From a virus: a stretch of 64,000 nucleotides of DNA. The stretch's first letter is position 1. Every line of letters starts with the position of its first letter. Below the pieces are notes generated by a model that had not been told where the DNA came from, did not search any database, and saw only the letters and a list, made by a program, of their open reading frames with translations. Shown here piece by piece: positions 2,795-62,148 of this stretch. A program made the translations under genes and the position numbers. The stretch is taken from IMG/VR virus record IMGVR_UViG_3300029850_000008; one strand, 5' to 3'.

Positions 2795-4173
2795 ATGAAG
2801 TTCATTGATTTTTTCGCAGGAATCGGAGGATTTCGCAGGGGAATGGAATTAGCAGGTCATGAATGCGTTGGTTTCTGTGAATTTGATAAATTTGCGGTGG
2901 CAAGTTATACATCAATGCATTTGCTGACTGATGAGCAAAGAAAATATTTGTCTAAAGTTCCAGAAAAACAGAGATTTAAAGAAATTCTAAAGGAGGAATA
3001 TCGCAATGGAGAATGGTTTGCAAATGACATTAGACGAGTGTATGCCGGAGACATTCCAAAAGCCGACTGCTGGTGCTTCGGATTCCCCTGTCAGGACATA
3101 TCCGTTGCAGGAAAGCAACTTGGGTTTCAAGGAAACCGTTCAAGCTTGTTTTTCAGAGTTATGTACCTTATCGGACAACTCAAAGAAGAAGATAAACCCA
3201 CTTACCTTTTCATTGAGAACGTTAAGAATCTGCTTAGTGTTAATGGAGGATGGGATTTCGCCAGATTGCTCATTGAAATGGATAGGGGGGGTACGATGCA
3301 GAATGGCAGGTGCTCAACTCCAAAGATTTCGGAGTGCCACAAAACAGGGAAAGGTGTTTCATTATCGGACATCTTAGAGGGAGAAGTTCTGCAAAAGTAT
3401 TTCCTGTCGAAAGAACAGACGGAGAAAATAGTATTTCAATGATTGGTCATAGAGATGGATACAGAAGAAATATGCAAGTGTTTTCACCGGACGGGATTAC
3501 TGAAACTCTTGATACTGGACAAGGTGGTGGACGTGGGGCATACGTTTCAATAAACATCTTGAACAAAGACTATAATCATGCCCATGAAGCGGTCTATGAT
3601 ACAGACGGAATTATAGGAACTTTAATGGCTCGAGATTATAAAGATCCTAAGAGAGTGTGCATACCGGTTCTTACGCCAGACAGAGCAGAAAAGCATCAGA
3701 ATGGCAGACGATTTAAAGATGATGGAGAACCAATGTTCACACTAACAGGTCAAGACAGACATGGTGTTGCTGTTGAACCTATTGGAATTATTGATCCACA
3801 AGGAAGAAAAACGAAAGTTGTTGTTCCAAAAGACATGGTTCCTACATTGCGTAGTCAGTCACATGGAAACGAGCCAAATGTGTGTTTCAATGTAGGAGAA
3901 GATAAGGATTCAAATTCTAAGGATGGAATTTTTGTCAAACTGTCTGCTGAACTAACAGTATATGCAGTCTGGTATGAAAAATATCAGTGTTACATAGCGA
4001 TCAGAAAATTAACCCCAAAAGAATGTTTTAGACTTCAAGGGTGGTCCGATGATTATTTTGAGAAAGCTCAGTTTGTTAATTCTGACAGCCAGTTATACAA
4101 GCAAGCAGGAAACGGCGTAACAGTGACAGTTATAGAAGCTATAGCAAGGAAAATGAACGTAGATCTAAATTGA
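2795..4173 (+). pseudogene. DNA (cytosine-5)-methyltransferase, reading frame broken at a G7 tract (3285-3291)
   Basis: Motifs FAGIGGF (I), GFPCQDIS (IV), ENVKNL (VI) in frame 2; after the G run GYDAEWQVLNSKDFGVPQNRERCFIIG (VIII) and GNGVTV (X) in frame 1; G8 would give one ORF. Confidence 0.85.
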
Positions 4174-4214: not shown

Positions 4215-4400
4215 ATGGATTATAAACACTGTAGATGTGTATGCGGTGGAATTATAGGGCAATACAGTAAAGTGAAAGGATTCACCTGTGAAAGATGCAA
4301 TAAAGAGTATCAATTATCAGAGCTAAAATATGATTGGCTCGCATTGAACGAAAAGACAGGATGGCTGTTTCCGATGCAAAAAAAGGTATATACACAATGA
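4215..4400 (+). CDS. Small zinc-ribbon protein
   Basis: CRCVCGG...CERC motifs. Confidence 0.45.
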   Translation: MDYKHCRCVCGGIIGQYSKVKGFTCERCNKEYQLSELKYDWLALNEKTGWLFPMQKKVYTQ

Positions 4401-4756
4401 AGAAACTATATATCTACTCATTAGAGTATGACTATAAAAAACAAAAGTATGTGGTTCAGATGGATTATTTATTTGCGACAGATCAAGGATCACATTATCA
4501 ACCGGTTGACGTACCAGAAAAGCGGGCTTTTACAAAAATAGCTATATATAAAAGATGTATTGGTTCACTAATTGATTCTTATAATGATTTCGTTGTTTTA
4601 GAAAAACCAGAATATGAAAAGGCTAAAAGAATATTTAAACGGATGATTGAACAAAGAATCAGCGTTTTGATGGGTGAAATGTACAGATATGAGGAAATGA
4701 AAATAGCAGTTGAAGATTTTAAACAGGAGGAGTGTGAAGATTATGAGACTGATTGA
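4397..4756 (+). CDS. Hypothetical protein (paralog of 1900-2232)
   Basis: ATGA start/stop overlap with previous ORF; similarity to 1900-2232 product. Confidence 0.5.
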   Translation: MKKLYIYSLEYDYKKQKYVVQMDYLFATDQGSHYQPVDVPEKRAFTKIAIYKRCIGSLIDSYNDFVVLEKPEYEKAKRIFKRMIEQRISVLMGEMYRYEEMKIAVEDFKQEECEDYETD

Positions 4757-8615: not shown

Positions 8616-8833
8616 AATTTAAAGATTTTGTGAATTGGTGCAATGGAAGAGCATGTGATGGATGCTGGGGAATGCTAACAGCTATGGTATGCATTGATTT
8701 GATACAACAGGTTAGAAAAATCCCTTTTTGGAAAAGAGAGAAGTTTTGGAAAGAAAATTACGAACAGCAGGTATTAGACGAGATTGTTAATCCGATAGAG
8801 AAGAAGCTGGATGAAATGGAAAAAGGAGATTGA
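8612..8833 (+). CDS. Hypothetical protein
   Basis: ORF. Confidence 0.4.
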   Translation: MKFKDFVNWCNGRACDGCWGMLTAMVCIDLIQQVRKIPFWKREKFWKENYEQQVLDEIVNPIEKKLDEMEKGD

Positions 8834-8837
8834 GAAT

Positions 8838-9290
8838 ATGGAACAGTTAATGCTTGAAGATATGATAAAAGCCCTAAAATGTATTGCCAGCCAAGATGCT
8901 GATGGGGATTGCTATATGGAACACGAGAATTTTAAACATATGGAAGATGAAAATTACAAGCCCATTGTCTGTGCGACTGGTGAGAATTTAAGAGATCCAA
9001 TTAGCGGAGAAGATGCTATTAGTTGCCCATATTATAATAAAGCATATGAGTGTTGCCTTGAAGATGGGGATCTGTCTTGGATGAAAGATGTTGCAGAACT
9101 TCTGGAAAAGCAAATTCCAAAAACCATAAAAATGAATGACGAAATAAAATATTTGGATGGAGAAGGCGTTGGCTGGGTATGCCCAGGGTGCAATACAGTG
9201 ATTTTTGATTTTGGCATTTATGATTACTGCCCTCATTGTGGTCAGAGATTGGAATGGAGAGATGATAATATTGAAGCTGAAAGTAATTAG
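8838..9290 (+). CDS. Cys-rich hypothetical protein
   Basis: GGAG RBS before ATG 8838; CPGC...CPHC zinc ribbon at C-terminus. Confidence 0.5.
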   Translation: MEQLMLEDMIKALKCIASQDADGDCYMEHENFKHMEDENYKPIVCATGENLRDPISGEDAISCPYYNKAYECCLEDGDLSWMKDVAELLEKQIPKTIKMNDEIKYLDGEGVGWVCPGCNTVIFDFGIYDYCPHCGQRLEWRDDNIEAESN

Positions 9291-18666: not shown

Positions 18667-20421
18667 ATGAGTAATATATACCAGTTAAGAGAACTACTTA
18701 GAACACAGACAATTTATGATTTGCCGTTACGAGTTGCATACTATGCAAGAGTCAGCACAGATCATGATGAACAGAAAACATCAATCAAGAACCAGGATGA
18801 TTATTTTAAGGAATTGATAAAATCAAAGCCGAACTGGAAATTTATGGGAGGCTATATTGATGAGGGGATTTCTGGAATTGCCGTAAAAAATCGTGAAGAT
18901 TTTTTGAGGATGATTGATGATGCTAAGAATGGAAAGATTGATTTGATACTGACAAAAGAAATTTCCAGATTCGCTAGGAATACACTAGATAGCATCAAAT
19001 ACACCCGTGAACTTTTGGCATGTGGTGTATGTGTATGGTTTATGAATGATGGAATCAATACGATTGATGAAGACAGTGAGTTAAGATTGACTATTATGGC
19101 AGCTATGGCACAGGACGAAATCAGAAAGATGTCTTCCAGGATTAAATTCGGTCAGGCTCAGTCAATAAAAAATGGCGTAGTAATGGGAAATTCAAGATTG
19201 TATGGTTATGACAAAAAAGATGGAAAACTGACAATCAATGAAGCTGAAGCCGAAATGGTTCGATTCATTTTTGAAAGTTATGCATCTGGCAAATGGACAA
19301 CACCACAGATTGAACGATACCTATATGAAAAAGGGTACAGAAACTATAATGGAGGTAAAATCAACCGTGGAGTTATCAAAAATATCATAAAGAATCCAAA
19401 GTACAAAGGTTATTATGCTGGTGGAAAAGTAAAAGTTATTGATATGTTTACAAAAAAACAGATGTTTCTTCCAAAAGACCAATGGGTTTATTACAAGGAT
19501 GATGGATCAACGGTTCCGCAAATCATAGATGAAAAGACTTGGGAAGATGCAAATTATTATATGAAGAGCCGTGGTGACAATATAAGAAGTCACAGAACGG
19601 TGTTTAAGTATGGTAATGTGTTTACTGGAAAGGTAATTTGTGGGATAGATGGTGCTTCGTATTGGCTACGTGAACACAAGATACGTGGAAAAGAAAGTGA
19701 TCCAAGATGGGTCTGTAGTCATAAAATCAAAAATGGAGCAAATTCTTGTCTATCGGTTCCTGTCAGAGAAAGCGACTTGAAACAAATGGTTGCATCAGCA
19801 ATCAGTCAAGCAGCTGGAAACTCTAAAGATGTTATTGATTCATATATGAATTATTACTTAAAAGCCATTGATGATTCAAAAGAAAAAGAGGGAGAAATAG
19901 CAGTTTTAAGAAAAAATATTGAATCCACAAAATTGAAGATGGAGAAAATCCTGGATTACAATTTGAACGGATCAATATCTGATGATGAATTCTTAAAAAG
20001 AAACGCTGCGTATAAAAAAGAGATTGAAAACGCAGAAGAGAAAATTCTAAAATTGTCTAAAAAACCGGAAGAGCCGGATTCTATTGCAAGGAAAATCGAA
20101 CAGATAAGGGAATACTTGGCGAACACAGAAATTGTTTCTGCTGATGACATAACTAAACAAATTGTCGAAAAATTAATTGAAAAGATAATTATATTACCAG
20201 AAGAGGAAAATGGTATAAAAGTCATCAAGTCAGAAATATACCTTATAAATAAGGAACTGTATAAGTTTTGTAAGGATATGGGGACAAAAAATAGTTGTTC
20301 AGATAACGTAACTTTGATCATGTTCCCTAAACAACGCATGGAAATTACTAATGAAAATGCGCATTGTGTGAACCAGTATAAAAGATTTTCAATAGAATTT
20401 TCTCTCTTTGTAAGATTTTAA
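18667..20421 (+). CDS. Large serine recombinase (integrase)
   Basis: YARVSTDHDEQKTSIKNQ catalytic Ser region, resolvase + recombinase + zinc-ribbon + coiled-coil length (584 aa). Confidence 0.9.
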   Translation: MSNIYQLRELLRTQTIYDLPLRVAYYARVSTDHDEQKTSIKNQDDYFKELIKSKPNWKFMGGYIDEGISGIAVKNREDFLRMIDDAKNGKIDLILTKEISRFARNTLDSIKYTRELLACGVCVWFMNDGINTIDEDSELRLTIMAAMAQDEIRKMSSRIKFGQAQSIKNGVVMGNSRLYGYDKKDGKLTINEAEAEMVRFIFESYASGKWTTPQIERYLYEKGYRNYNGGKINRGVIKNIIKNPKYKGYYAGGKVKVIDMFTKKQMFLPKDQWVYYKDDGSTVPQIIDEKTWEDANYYMKSRGDNIRSHRTVFKYGNVFTGKVICGIDGASYWLREHKIRGKESDPRWVCSHKIKNGANSCLSVPVRESDLKQMVASAISQAAGNSKDVIDSYMNYYLKAIDDSKEKEGEIAVLRKNIESTKLKMEKILDYNLNGSISDDEFLKRNAAYKKEIENAEEKILKLSKKPEEPDSIARKIEQIREYLANTEIVSADDITKQIVEKLIEKIIILPEEENGIKVIKSEIYLINKELYKFCKDMGTKNSCSDNVTLIMFPKQRMEITNENAHCVNQYKRFSIEFSLFVRF

Positions 20422-21000: not shown

Positions 21001-21200
21001 TATTCATAAAAGCCCCATGCTTTGTATTGCTTTTTCAATACTTCCAAAGCAGAATTTTTACTGAGAAACTCAGCTCTAGCCGTTTCTCTTGTATATTTCT
21101 TGGCACTATACCAGGCGAAACCATTGATCACATACCAGGAATCCCCGTGATCATCGGTTTCCAGCTCAATACTATAAACCATCTTTTTCTTACGTGGCAT
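21000..21200 (-). CDS. Hypothetical protein (66 aa)
   Basis: AAGGAGG RBS upstream of ATG 21200. Confidence 0.6.
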   Translation of the reverse strand: MPRKKKMVYSIELETDDHGDSWYVINGFAWYSAKKYTRETARAEFLSKNSALEVLKKQYKAWGFYE

Positions 21201-21234
21201 GGCTTGACCTCCTTATTCTTTTTTTCTGGATATG

Positions 21235-21432
21235 CTAAAAAATCCCGGATATACCGCCGGGGCGGTGCCCTGTTATGGCCTTGGACATCGGCTACAGTGC
21301 TGGCTTTTTCGGCTCCCAGTCAACGCCGCTTTTGCCTCCCTTCGCGATCCGGGCATTAAAAGCGGATAAAGCCCGGAGAGAAACCCAGCGGCGGACTGAA
21401 CCGCCCACGGCTTAACCGTCACAGGGTAGGTT
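21235..21432 (-). ncRNA. GC-rich structured leader/ncRNA ending in an intrinsic terminator
   Basis: Strong GC excess relative to surroundings; multiple stems (CCCUGU/ACAGGG, GGCGG/CCGCC, CCGGGC/GCCCGG, CCGCUUUU/AAAAGCGG, GCUGG/CCAGC); 3' CCCGG-loop-CCGGG + AUUUUUU. Confidence 0.45.
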
Positions 21433-21495
21433 TTATAAGAGGCTCAAGCTATAACCTCCGATAAATGACAAAACGGCAATAAGAACGTAATACAT
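21433..21495 (-). CDS. 20-codon hydrophobic mini-ORF MYYVLIAVLSFIGGYSLSLL
   Basis: AAAGGAGGG RBS 6 nt before the ATG (21495-21493); stop (TAA) at 21435-21433. Confidence 0.35.
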   Translation of the reverse strand: MYYVLIAVLSFIGGYSLSLL

Positions 21496-21771: not shown

Positions 21772-21801
21772 GTGTTTTCCTCCATTTTTTTTGATTTTTA
21801 T

Positions 21802-21846
21802 AAAAACGCCGCCCGTGGGAATCGAACCAACGAAACTCCAAACGGC
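21802..21846 (-). terminator. Long hairpin + U-run with tRNA T-arm-like core (GGUUCGAUUCC)
   Basis: Minus RNA GCCGUUUG...CGGGCGGC then GUUUUU, directly after the stop of 21847-21996. Confidence 0.5.
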
Positions 21847-21996
21847 TTAATATTCGATGAATACAAACTCTTCATCGGTTTCCAGTTCTGCAACCCGGTT
21901 TCCAAGTGTGATAAGCATAAAACCGGCCTTTCTGTAATCCTTGATAAGGCTTTCAAAATGCTCCTTACTTGCTGCGGTGATTTTATATTTTCTCAT
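21847..21996 (-). CDS. Hypothetical protein (49 aa)
   Basis: Internal ATG 21996 preceded by GAGAAAGGAAC; longer ORF-track version would overlap the ribozyme and previous gene. Confidence 0.55.
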   Translation of the reverse strand: MRKYKITAASKEHFESLIKDYRKAGFMLITLGNRVAELETDEEFVFIEY

Positions 21997-22014
21997 ATTG
22001 TTCCTTTCTCGCCT

Positions 22015-22070
22015 GTCATCATCAGCGCAACGGGGCGGATCGTTGCGGACGCCCTGGAGGGCGTTTCGAC
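22015..22070 (-). ncRNA. Type II hammerhead ribozyme motif (HH-A)
   Basis: GUC-GAA-[ACGCCC UCCA GGGCGU]-C/[CGCAACG AUCCGCCC CGUUGCG]-CUGAUGA-U-GAC; all core nucleotides present. Confidence 0.75.
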
Positions 22071-22330
22071 TATTTAAGCAGCTTTTCAAATGCTTTTCTC
22101 TTTTTGTAATTTTCAACTTGACTTATACTGGAGTCATCAAAAAGGATCTGGAAACCATCAGAAGCAAGTGCTGCGGCCATTGTGTACGGGTCAATCTTTG
22201 GGAACCTGCAAAGGTATTCGACCACGTTCATTCTTATGTTTTTATCATTTTTCGTTCCGATCTTTTCAAGGTCTCTTTTGTAAACATTAAAAATTCTTTC
22301 CTGTTTCTCTTTCACGGTTTCTTTTATCAT
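22070..22330 (-). CDS. Hypothetical protein (86 aa)
   Basis: ORF flanked by the two hammerhead motifs; stop UAG overlaps HH-A 5' end. Confidence 0.6.
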   Translation of the reverse strand: MIKETVKEKQERIFNVYKRDLEKIGTKNDKNIRMNVVEYLCRFPKIDPYTMAAALASDGFQILFDDSSISQVENYKKRKAFEKLLK

Positions 22331-22357
22331 ATATTTTACGTCCTTTCTTTTTGCCCT

Positions 22358-22412
22358 GTCTCATCGGTGCAGGTGGGGCAGTTCCTACAGACCGCCGGGC
22401 GGCGGTTTCGAC
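22358..22412 (-). ncRNA. Type II hammerhead-like motif (HH-B), core variant CCGAUGA
   Basis: GUC-GAA-[ACCGCC GCCC GGCGGU]-C/[UGUAGG AACUGCCCCA CCUGCA]-CCGAUGA-GAC; same architecture as HH-A with compensatory stem changes. Confidence 0.55.
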
Positions 22413-22415
22413 TAA

Positions 22416-22643
22416 TTAGCATTCTCGGTGTATGCAACCAGTGTAAACAGTGTTTGTGGTTCCCTCGCAGCCGTTCAACCACTTTTTGCAGTGGTAGCAG
22501 ATGCTATTGTAACGGTTGTATTCTGTAGCTTTTCCATATTCCTCGCACTCTTTGCGATATGGACAAGTGGTGCAGTCCTTTTTGTATTTATGGCAATTTC
22601 TTTTTAGCAGTTTTTCCAGCTCTAAAAATCTTTCTTTTGTCAT
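22416..22643 (-). CDS. Cys-rich hypothetical protein (75 aa)
   Basis: ORF with GGAG RBS, many CxxC pairs. Confidence 0.6.
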   Translation of the reverse strand: MTKERFLELEKLLKRNCHKYKKDCTTCPYRKECEEYGKATEYNRYNSICYHCKKWLNGCEGTTNTVYTGCIHREC

Positions 22644-22675: not shown

Positions 22676-22800
22676 TGTTATGTACACAATTATATAATGT
22701 TACGTACACAATATCAATGTGCATTTTACACAAAGTTACGCACACATTTTTATATATTTTTGATGTGTACACAACATTGAAACTATGTTATAATTTCCGC
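22676..22800. promoter_or_regulatory. Divergent promoter region with five GTACACAA-like operator repeats
   Basis: TGTACACAA, CGTACACAA, TTTACACAA, GCACACAT, TGTACACAA; TGTTATAAT extended -10 for the + gene; TTGATA-17-TATAAT on the minus strand. Confidence 0.55.
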
Positions 22801-33646: not shown

Positions 33647-33718
33647 TGGGCTATCGCCAAGCGGTAAGGCACATGACTTTGACTCATGTATGCGTTGGTT
33701 CGAATCCAACTAGCCCAG
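33647..33718 (+). tRNA. tRNA-Gln (anticodon UUG)
   Basis: Manual cloverleaf: acceptor UGGGCUA/UAGCCCA (U1-A72), D GCC/GGC, anticodon stem CAUGA/UCAUG loop CUUUGAC, T GUUGG-UUCGAAU-CCAAC; no encoded CCA. Confidence 0.85.
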
Positions 33719-33980
33719 CTTGGTAAGATTTATTTACCTTACCAAAATAGCATATCATTTATGCTATTCCTCCTCATTCATATTACCACCTAGCGGAAAG
33801 CTGATAAAAGAACCGTCACAAGGTTCGGGTGGTTTTCTGGTTTGGAAGCCAGGACATGTGCAAAGTTCCGAACTGTTTACCACATCATAGGGATGTTTGC
33901 ATGGCCTTTGTTATGGCTGGTGGATAAGAACCATAACAGTGAAGGGGATTTCTTGCAGAATTCAAATCCCCTTTATCTCA

Positions 33981-34053
33981 GGAGCTTTATTTCAGTTGGT
34001 AGAAAGACCGCCTCATAAGCGGTAAGTCATCGGTTCGAGTCCGGTAGGCTCCA
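33981..34053 (+). tRNA. tRNA with CAU anticodon (Met, or Ile2 if lysidine-modified)
   Basis: Manual cloverleaf: acceptor GGAGCUU/AGGCUCC, D UUUC/GAAA, anticodon stem ACCGC/GCGGU loop CUCAUAA, T AUCGG-UUCGAGU-CCGGU. Confidence 0.8.
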
Positions 34054-61152: not shown

Positions 61153-62148
61153 ATGTCTAACGAAATCAGAAATCAAGTAATTATGGAACTCCAGGGAGAC
61201 TTTACAACGGAACAATTAAAGATCATTGATTTGGCAGTGGCTAAGGCAATGAGGGGATATAGGATTGAGCGAGAAGAGACGCTTCCGGCGACAACAGTAT
61301 GTGAAATGCCTTTAGATATAAGGGAATTCCTTGCAAGGAAGAAAATGAAAGGTTGTTCTGATGGAACAATCGAACAGTACAAAGATTTGTTGTCGGATTT
61401 TGCATTGTGGGCCAGAAAAGATCTTCGGCAGGTAAAAGACCTTGATATTTTAGCGTATTTGGATTATAGGGCGAAGCTTGGAGCATCGAACAGAACATTG
61501 GATAGTAAGCGTCTCATATTATCATCATTTTATACTACGATGCATGAAACTGGGAAAATGCAGTATAATCCGTCTAAGACAGTTGATCCAGTGAAATACA
61601 AGGCAAAAGTTCGGGAACCGCTGAACGATATGGAATTGGAAAAAGTTCGGTCTGCTTGTCGGACTCTAAGAGAAAAAGCGTTGTTTGAAGTCTTATATGC
61701 AACTGGCGGACGTGTGAGTGAGATAGTTGGAATTAATTATACGGAAATAGACAAGCAAACCAGAAGCGTAGTAATAACTGGAAAAGGTGACCAGGAAAGA
61801 TATGTATTTCTAAATGCGAAAGCCATGTTAGCTATCGAAAATTATATAAAAAGCAGGGGAGATGAAAGCCCAGCATTATTTGTTGGTGCAAGAAAACCAC
61901 ATAATCGTTTGGGGAAAGAAGCCATTGAAAGAGAGCTGAAAGCAATAGGGGAAAGGTCTGGGATTGACAGACCAGTTTTCCCACATTTATTAAGACATAC
62001 GTTTGCGACTGATATGCTTGAACATGGAGCATCTCTTAATGAGGTATCGGAGATGTTGGGGCACAAGAAATTGGATACAACAAAGATTTATGCTAAAATC
62101 AGTACGAATACATTGGCAATTTCTTATAAAAAACATCATGCCGCATAA
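61153..62148 (+). CDS. Tyrosine recombinase (XerC/D-like)
   Basis: ..ATGGRVSEI.., ..HLLRHTFAT.., ..GHKKLDTTKIY.. catalytic motifs. Confidence 0.85.
   Translation: MSNEIRNQVIMELQGDFTTEQLKIIDLAVAKAMRGYRIEREETLPATTVCEMPLDIREFLARKKMKGCSDGTIEQYKDLLSDFALWARKDLRQVKDLDILAYLDYRAKLGASNRTLDSKRLILSSFYTTMHETGKMQYNPSKTVDPVKYKAKVREPLNDMELEKVRSACRTLREKALFEVLYATGGRVSEIVGINYTEIDKQTRSVVITGKGDQERYVFLNAKAMLAIENYIKSRGDESPALFVGARKPHNRLGKEAIERELKAIGERSGIDRPVFPHLLRHTFATDMLEHGASLNEVSEMLGHKKLDTTKIYAKISTNTLAISYKKHHAA

Follow-up and report, generated by a model that had tools for sequence, protein, structure and literature searches.

A type II pseudoknotted hammerhead with cytosine at core position 4, predicted to cleave, between shuffled gene cassettes of human-gut phages

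The IMG/VR virus record IMGVR_UViG_3300029850_000008 is represented here by a 64-kb window (64,000 nucleotides, the whole stretch of DNA that was analysed), whose minus strand carries an intergenic hammerhead-like element, HH-B, in an operon of small open reading frames (ORFs). HH-B is probably a genuine type II pseudoknotted self-cleaving hammerhead, in which the cytosine at core position 4 (C4), where the consensus has uridine (U4), would be one of two naturally maintained states and is predicted still to allow cleavage. A sequence-only reading of the window had recognized HH-B as a second hammerhead in the register of a canonical neighbour, HH-A, with stems and a pseudoknot that differ in sequence yet stay complementary, and this view is upheld by the sequence, by the alignment to the Rfam family RF02276, and by covariation among relatives. 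That reading missed the published natural precedent for a U4C change and the recurrence of the element as a junction module between shuffled gene cassettes.

Read on the minus strand, HH-B has the complete architecture of a type II hammerhead, including stems I, II, and III, the GAAA and CNGAUGA boxes, a pseudoknot between loop I and the 3' tail, and C17 (Table 1). The minus-strand string written out earlier was reproduced to the base, C4 was found at 22366, and the Rfam alignment places C17 at plus coordinate 22390, as had been proposed for nucleotide 17. The element is a three-way junction in which loops close stems I and III while stem II stays open. Its GAA core, A15.1-U16.1 closing pair (A22406-U22391), and non-G nucleotide 17 are those of type II hammerheads. 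Stem II opens with the pair G10.1-C11.1 (G22360-C22410), which is invariant in the 18-sequence alignment discussed below. In the core box, six of the seven positions fit the consensus C3-U4-G5-A6-N7-G8-A9, and the departure lies at position 4. HH-B resembles the type II hammerheads of Perreault et al. (PMC3088659; RF02276) in its two boxes, A15.1-U16.1 pair, and C17, in a short stem II of 3 base pairs (bp), in the Watson-Crick pseudoknot of loop I with the sequence just 3' of stem II, and in its position near an integrase, in tandem with a second hammerhead and flanking a small ORF of no assigned family. It differs from them in the C at core position 4, in a score under the Rfam gathering threshold, and in having C4 as the majority allele of its lineage. 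By descent, as far as sequence can tell, HH-B belongs with the type II pseudoknotted hammerheads, and it lies outside two formal limits of the class, U4 and the Rfam threshold.

The covariance-model search that had been recommended for HH-B was carried out in a permissive mode, with 271 nucleotides compared with 4227 Rfam families. RF02276 (Hammerhead_II) matched HH-B over its full length (model positions 1-66 of 66) with 31.0 bits and E=1.1e-4, or about 0.03 when rescaled to the whole 64-kb window and all families, and the sole core mismatch in the alignment was U4 to C. Judged from this alignment, the match exceeds chance. A U4 sibling of HH-B scores 36.3 bits, also under the gathering threshold of 37 bits, so that C4 costs 5.3 bits on a scaffold that is itself borderline, and routine annotation therefore overlooks the entire HH-B lineage. 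Permissive settings were needed for both hammerheads: at gathering thresholds, the Rfam search of the whole window returned two tRNAs only and listed neither HH-B nor HH-A. HH-A exceeds the threshold with 40.2 bits, yet it was missing from that default run because the speed filters lose short hammerheads in long inputs. A covariance model built in this study gave HH-B 70.7 bits, but HH-B belonged to the seed of that model.

Relatives of HH-B are numerous. The operon DNA found nothing similar in the annotated GenBank phage collection, while searches with ORF1 and ORF2, the genes on either side of HH-B, led to nine viral contigs. In six of these nine, the same ribozyme lies after the ORF1 homologue, and its core is CCGAUGA in four contigs and CUGAUGA in two. 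The set was enlarged by three exact-pattern scans, each pattern fixing one half of the ribozyme and leaving the half used for argument free. The scan anchored in the 3' half (with Y at position 4) recovered 81 viral stretches and four bacterial genome contigs, from Clostridium sp. CAG:510, a Jutongia metagenome-assembled genome (MAG), an Eubacteriales MAG, and a Selenomonadaceae bin. With the 5' half as the anchor and the core free, 91 viral stretches were found, and the 5'-anchored pattern gave 95 stretches in metagenomes, mostly human-gut assemblies. The element occurs at like gene junctions in about 100 viral contigs and 87 distinct metagenome contexts, and the flanks of these copies are mosaic.

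De-duplication left 90 distinct copies, comprising 62 with C4, 27 with U4, and one decayed. A covariance model made from 18 representatives detected 177 hammerheads in about 1 Mb of fetched loci. In the HH-B lineage, 70 of these carry C4 and 31 U4 (47 versus 21 distinct sequences), and C4 is absent from the 70 hammerheads of other lineages at those loci. The earlier regular-expression counts, 62 C4 and 27 U4 against 0 of 65 elsewhere, correspond to a Fisher p of about 6e-22. The metagenome sample comprises 55 C4 and about 27 U4 in its 87 distinct contexts, and the 60 contexts not seen before contribute 37 C4 versus about 19 U4. The sequence-only reading had offered three fates for C4: slow, inactive, or a natural variant. 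The last is supported by a C4:U4 ratio of about 2:1 in two collections; the other two are weighed below. With the core left unconstrained, position 4 was the sole polymorphic core site, and A4, G8A, and C3A appeared once each. Both alleles are found in eight of the 24 loop-III types of the lineage and in six complete haplotypes, which implies either repeated C/U changes or a long-lasting polymorphism. In the homologue alignment that had been called for, C4 is the majority state of a polymorphic position, and among the copies compared it does not look like damage. No description of a C4-majority lineage was found in the searchable literature.

Covariation supports the fold as a whole. In the structural alignment, in which 18 sequences represent about eight lineages, 97.8% of the cells of the four helices are paired, versus 29-37% in registers slid by 1-3 columns, and 14 of the 18 pairs change on both sides. 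Pairing across lineages reaches 100% in stems II and III and 98.9% in stem I. Both-side changes affect all five pairs of stem I, four of the six of stem III, and all four of the pseudoknot, and in stem II the column pair 4-62 covaries between CG and UA. The pseudoknot is 91.7% paired, though the collecting script did not demand it, and its tail in relatives is GGGCA or GGGCG (U-A or U.G). Within the HH-B lineage, single changes in the 3' strand of stem I (CCUACA, CUUGCA, CCUGUA, and CCUGCG) all keep the pairing, and in L070, which is more divergent, both stem III and the pseudoknot (AACCC:GGGUU) carry compensatory changes.

The distribution of diversity in the C4 copies points to selection on the ribozyme. 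Among 61 C4 copies, all core and stem positions have a nucleotide diversity of 0-0.06; loop III, with 18 types, has 0.18-0.41, and the eight flanking bases on each side have 0.5-0.7. G12, A13, and A14 are unchanged in 61 of 62 C4 copies in which the search pattern left that half free, and C17 is the same in every copy compared. As loops and flanks have diverged and the catalytic nucleotides have not, purifying selection appears to act on catalysis-related sequence in a C4 background.

As a control for copies that are dead but not yet decayed, all viral contigs were scanned for a sister scaffold (GCC/GGC stem II, ACGC...GCGU stem III, and a U inserted after A9) bearing single core transitions. 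U4C was found in 24 stretches (25 copies, 21 distinct) on contigs L112-L135 from many different metagenomes, A6G in two stretches (L251 and L252), and G8A in three (L253-L255), while the consensus U4 form was present in at least 120 stretches. The stems and pseudoknots of the 21 distinct C4 copies are unrelated in sequence; L116, for example, has GCACGG-AACUGGCCCA-CCGUGC and the tail GGCCA. Stem I has at least 4 bp in 25 of 25 copies and the pseudoknot at least 4 bp in 21 of 25. Mutation bias cannot account for the roughly tenfold excess of C4, since A6G and U4C are both A:T to G:C mutations. The idea that C4 is confined to the HH-B scaffold, suggested by its absence from 65-70 other hammerheads at the first loci, is rejected by the 24 sister-scaffold stretches. 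Across the scaffolds compared, pseudoknotted type II hammerheads of phages tolerate C4, which recurs among them; in these collections it is a minority state generally and the majority state in the HH-B lineage.

Published work provides both the family and the precedents. Type II hammerheads with a loop-I/3'-tail pseudoknot have been described in tandem in prophage polycistronic RNAs, and they cleave in vitro and in E. coli (PMC3088659, 2011); cleavage of type II hammerheads in bacterial cells has also been reported elsewhere (PMC8782182). The bacterial representatives lie in prophages near integrases, several together flanking small non-conserved ORFs (PMC3088659, PMC6155905; de la Pena 2017), and HH-B and HH-A share this setting of phage DNA, a nearby integrase, and an intervening small ORF without a family. 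Disruption of the pseudoknot reduces the rate 20- to more than 100-fold, and for the rare natural core variants on record, tertiary contacts have been proposed to offset the core defects (PMC3088659). One precedent is a viroid U4C hammerhead, reported as weak in vitro and sufficient in vivo (Ambros and Flores 1998, as cited in PMC3088659). It has the same core substitution, natural and evolutionarily retained, but it belongs to an RNA replicon, with a different topology, a function in rolling-circle processing, and the status of a variant within a quasispecies, whereas HH-B is a type II ribozyme of a DNA phage, located in mRNA and fixed in many independent phage genomes. The A6C hammerhead of Burkholderia phage Bcep176 (PMC3088659; PMC7151607) is, like HH-B, intergenic in a phage with one deviation in the CUGAUGA box, and it retains activity, although slower in Mg2+. 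It differs in the position concerned, 6 instead of 4, and in its preference for Mn2+ over Mg2+, which has been demonstrated experimentally (PMC7151607). In the supplements of Perreault et al. 2011, CCGAUGA appears only within an Aedes primer name. The primer table thus lists a C4 Aedes construct, and the legend of Figure S7 describes the Aedes example as inactive and as diverging at more than one position (PMC3088659).

Several observations weigh against HH-B as an active ribozyme or lessen the force of the evidence for it. When a type III hammerhead was subjected to deep mutagenesis, every single mutant of its CUGA U-turn had poor activity (PMC9901934). The Rfam score of HH-B lies below the gathering threshold of RF02276. 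Folding of the single sequence gives z = -0.3 and nothing in support; the nested minimum free energy structure (-18.6 kcal/mol) forms the pseudoknot helix instead of stem I, and the three-stem hammerhead fold has -17.4 kcal/mol without the roughly -7.5 kcal/mol of the pseudoknot duplex. As single-sequence folding gives no help, the case for HH-B rests on comparative evidence. Part of that evidence is circular, because stems I to III were demanded by the collecting script, and the conservation of the fixed half in exact-match scans exists partly by construction. No change compensating for C4 was detected within the ribozyme, whether in the tail (A/G, p=0.31), loop I, the stem variants, or N7. 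Furthermore, the allele at position 4 is associated with the downstream gene family (mutual information 0.43, p=0.0002) and, less strongly, with the upstream family (0.28, p=0.006), the ORF2-like downstream family having 9 C and 0 U and a 52-amino-acid family 10 C and 0 U, which means that part of the C4 excess reflects shared descent. In these data, the downstream association fits linkage by descent and tuning alike.

Several other explanations have been considered. That a GC-rich intergenic region with hairpins resembles a hammerhead by accident could be argued from the subthreshold score and the non-significant folding z-score, but the full-length model match at E=1.1e-4, the presence of the bona fide hammerhead HH-A 276 nucleotides away in the same operon, about 200 homologous copies that keep core and pairing, and the covarying pseudoknot leave it a negligible probability; it is effectively refuted by the comparative data. 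An explanation by protein coding is unsupported, as the two ORFs overlapping HH-B, a 195-amino-acid antisense and a 48-amino-acid same-strand frame, had no match in Pfam or PHROGs. More substantial is the idea that C4 copies are catalytically dead and that the element is conserved for another role, as a structured spacer insulating the ribosome-binding site (RBS), a stabilizer of mRNA ends after the action of host RNases, or a patch of DNA homology for cassette exchange. The laboratory U-turn mutants agree with it, as do the occurrence of the module between many unrelated upstream and downstream genes, the insertion or deletion of a cassette exactly at the HH-A boundary, chimeras of hammerheads and tRNA-like minihelices that show recombination inside such elements, and stem sequences that are nearly fixed within the lineage beyond what pairing requires. 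It leaves unexplained, however, why G5, A6, G8, A9, G12, A13, A14, and C17 are invariant in about 60 diverged C4 copies whose loops and flanks are free to vary, why C4 outnumbers known-lethal transitions about 10-fold on the sister scaffold, and why C4 copies on unrelated scaffolds have intact stems and pseudoknots. Dead C4 copies are considered unlikely.

The remaining alternative regards C4 as an adaptive switch, by which processing of the downstream cistron would be conditional or set at a fixed partial level, and phages would flip between C and U to retune expression. Candidate triggers include protonation of C4 mimicking the N3-H of U, with a resulting pH dependence, another metal ion, or a protein. 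In favour of a switch, C predominates though a single transition reaches either state, the allele follows the downstream gene family, and identical haplotypes differ at position 4 only. The metal preference of the A6C phage hammerhead may offer an analogy (PMC7151607), and Perreault et al. raised the possibility that certain conditions or signals activate the slower variants found in phages (PMC3088659). The downstream association, however, can be explained as simple linkage by descent, and the minority status of C4 elsewhere (24 stretches versus at least 120) fits mild deleteriousness equally well; a switch, too, is rather improbable. A naturally maintained, cleaving C4 hammerhead is the preferred interpretation: most likely the C4 form still cleaves, probably more slowly than U4, and it may be helped by its strong pseudoknot.

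According to this mechanism, transcription from the promoter-like site near 22700 would yield an RNA that folds into stems I, II, and III, with the UGCCC:GGGCA pseudoknot as the lock. The 2'-OH of C17 would attack its own 3' phosphate co-transcriptionally and separate the mRNAs of ORF1 and ORF2. The ORF1 mRNA would be left with the stem III hairpin at its end and a 2',3'-cyclic phosphate on C17, and the ORF2 mRNA would open with the stem I hairpin, which bears the 5'-OH directly, and would continue into the constant pseudoknot tail, a spacer, and the RBS. Cleavage of HH-A 342 nucleotides downstream would turn ORF2 into a monocistronic 342-nucleotide RNA with a hairpin at both ends. Each cassette would thereby receive a standard, context-independent 5' end and the same translation-initiation context. 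In the canonical core, the A6/N7 phosphate contacts U4 (PMC3088659). C4 would lose this contact unless protonated, and the mechanism supposes that loss of the U4 N3-H contact can be tolerated.

Table 1. Features of HH-B, its operon, and other parts of the 64-kb window
Feature	Coordinates	Strand	Remarks
HH-B including 3' pseudoknot tail	22350..22413	-	Rfam match span, RF02276 model 1-66/66
Stem II 5' strand GUC (11.3-11.1)	22410..22412	-	Pairs with GAC 22360-22358
Core G12 A13 A14 (GAA)	22407..22409	-	From sequence
Stem III hairpin ACCGCC-GCCC-GGCGGU	22391..22406	-	A15.1-U16.1 closing pair; loop III hypervariable
C17	22390..22390	-	Placed by Rfam alignment; predicted scissile phosphate 3', between 22390 and 22389
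Stem I hairpin UGUAGG-AACUGCCCCA-CCUGCA	22368..22389	-	From sequence
Loop I pseudoknot strand UGCCC	22376..22380	-	Complementary to 22356-22352 in full
Core box C3 C4 G5 A6 U7 G8 A9	22361..22367	-	C4 at 22366 replaces consensus U
Stem II 3' strand GAC (10.1-10.3)	22358..22360	-	From sequence; one relative has GAU, G.U pair kept
3' tail pseudoknot strand GGGCA	22352..22356	-	Single A between GAC and tail
RBS of ORF2, AAAGGA	22341..22346	-	5 nucleotides past pseudoknot tail; belongs to ribozyme + RBS junction module
ORF1, 75 amino acids, Cys-rich	22416..22643	-	Upstream cistron; putative protein without family
ORF2, 86 amino acids	22070..22330	-	Cistron bracketed by HH-B and HH-A; without family
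HH-A, type II hammerhead, canonical CUGAUGA core	22007..22071	-	RF02276 40.2 bits; C17 at 22048
Promoter-like site TTGATA-17-TATAAT	22689..22717	-	11/12 consensus match; consensus match alone
Large serine integrase gene	18667..20421	+	phrog_95, E=2e-113; small-gene operon runs towards it
Tyrosine integrase	61153..62148	+	phrog_1, E=2e-49; near the window's other end
tRNA-Gln(UUG)	33647..33719		In window
tRNA-Met(CAU)	33981..34053		In window

The setting is a polycistronic small-gene operon next to an integrase, in a temperate tailed phage whose hosts are human-gut Firmicutes. About 60 kb in size, the tailed-phage genome that the window represents encodes helicase, primase, terminase, portal, major head, and tape-measure proteins. 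On the minus strand, the operon begins at the promoter-like site and runs ORF1, HH-B, ORF2, HH-A, ORF3 (49 amino acids), a tRNA-like hairpin, ORF4 (86 amino acids), and other elements downstream; Pfam and PHROGs searches gave no match for its small ORFs. The stop codon of ORF1 ends 2 nucleotides ahead of the start of the Rfam match and 3 ahead of stem II, and the 276 nucleotides that separate HH-A and HH-B surround ORF2. HH-A has an extra U between A9 and G10.1. Elsewhere in the non-coding DNA of the operon, Rfam found nothing credible. One non-coding stretch, GC-rich and about 230 nucleotides long (window 21440..21200, minus strand), separates ORF6 from a tiny hydrophobic ORF; L001 shares it with 98% identity, and L007 with 73% over 128 nucleotides. 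The stretch may encode a further structured RNA; no Rfam family matched it, and the z-score of its folding fell short of significance.

The junction module consists of the ribozyme, then always the constant tail, a spacer, and the RBS (GAAAGGA), and it is found before many unrelated genes. The HH-B unit follows at least 16 upstream protein clusters and precedes at least 19 downstream clusters in many combinations, and the recurrent 'MVD[FY]M' N-termini are the tail/spacer/RBS linker translated in frame. Among the related loci, 64 of 103 locus-strands have two to four hammerheads. The gaps between hammerheads measure 162-486 nucleotides (median 245) in 70 intervals, with one small ORF each, apart from one 8-nucleotide outlier; at L088:10095-10240, two full hammerheads lie just 8 nucleotides apart. 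In L001 (IMGVR_UViG_3300045988_084454, the closest relative), HH-A, the RBS, and ORF4 adjoin directly (L001:3255-3345), and the window has ORF3 and the tRNA-like hairpin between HH-A and ORF4 (22000..21790, minus strand), a cassette insertion or deletion exactly at the hammerhead boundary. At L095:3652-3722 (Clostridium sp. CAG:510), a hammerhead has A in place of C3 (AUGAUGA) with G8 unchanged, which would break the C3-G8 pair.

RiboJ-type synthetic insulators place a self-cleaving hammerhead just upstream of an RBS and so give a defined 5' end regardless of the upstream sequence; they are engineered from a type III satellite-RNA hammerhead. The same role is suggested here for the HH-B and RBS module, which differs in being natural and type II, its insulating effect being inferred only.

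The tRNA-like hairpin, or minihelix, lies directly after the ORF3 stop codon (window 21846..21808, minus strand). It comprises a 7-bp acceptor-like stem (GCCGUUU/GGGCGGC), an 8-nucleotide linker, and a T-arm (GUUGG-UUCGAUU-CCCAC), and is followed by GUUUUUA. ARAGORN and Rfam did not report it, its single-sequence folding z-score is uninformative, and it scores as a weak terminator, too. The T-stems of its homologues in L006 and L007 covary (CUGGG/CCCAG and CCGGGG/CCCCGG). Because it sits in the same slot as the hammerheads, from stop codon to RBS, it may be a processing site for RNase P or RNase Z. Truncated T-arm minihelices, as distinct from full tRNAs, make up at least two larger families that recur in hammerhead-bearing operons, e.g., at L057:~3093-3170, L079:~8770-8850, L095:~4363-4440, and L012 (minus strand) ~2080. 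One family reads UAG-GCAAG-N10-12-CCGGGG-UUCGAUU-CCCCGG-CUUGC-UUUUACCCGGAUAACCGGG and the other CGCGUGCUUGGUGCAUCCGUU-CCGG-UUCGAUU-CCGG-GAGCGCG; no description of either was found. Chimeric elements are present at L005:3575-3650, in L008 and L009 at 3320-3400, and also in L039. In these, the 5' half of a hammerhead (GAAAC, stem III, C17, and a stem I ending in ...CCCGGCU) is joined to the 3' end of a minihelix, UGCUUUUACCCGGAAACGGG; the joint is the common CCGGCU and the CUGAUGA box is absent. Such chimeras imply recombination within intercistronic elements.

These observations bear on the biology of phage hammerheads in several ways. U4 has been treated as an invariant nucleotide of the core, and in laboratory mutagenesis, changes at this position cripple the ribozyme. 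In a widespread lineage of human-gut phages, about two thirds of the copies nevertheless carry C4, and the remaining core positions show clear purifying selection. Both the polymorphism with C4 in the majority and the accompanying signature of selection seem to be new, and they can be tested directly. Matched C4/U4 pairs one base apart could reveal by what means a pseudoknotted scaffold compensates for, or makes use of, a defective U-turn, and could also tell whether natural ribozymes are tuned for speed. There is also a gap in annotation, with the entire HH-B lineage lying under the Rfam threshold. The ribozyme and RBS junction between shuffled cassettes bears on the role of bacterial and phage hammerheads and suggests ready-made natural insulator parts. 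A more speculative extension, considered unlikely, would make position 4 a one-nucleotide dial of rate or condition and the module a natural insulating part and, by virtue of its conserved sequence, a cassette-swap joint, with the minihelices doing the same job via host RNase P or RNase Z. If the idea of a dial is true, C/U flips would set how much of each accessory-gene transcript is processed.

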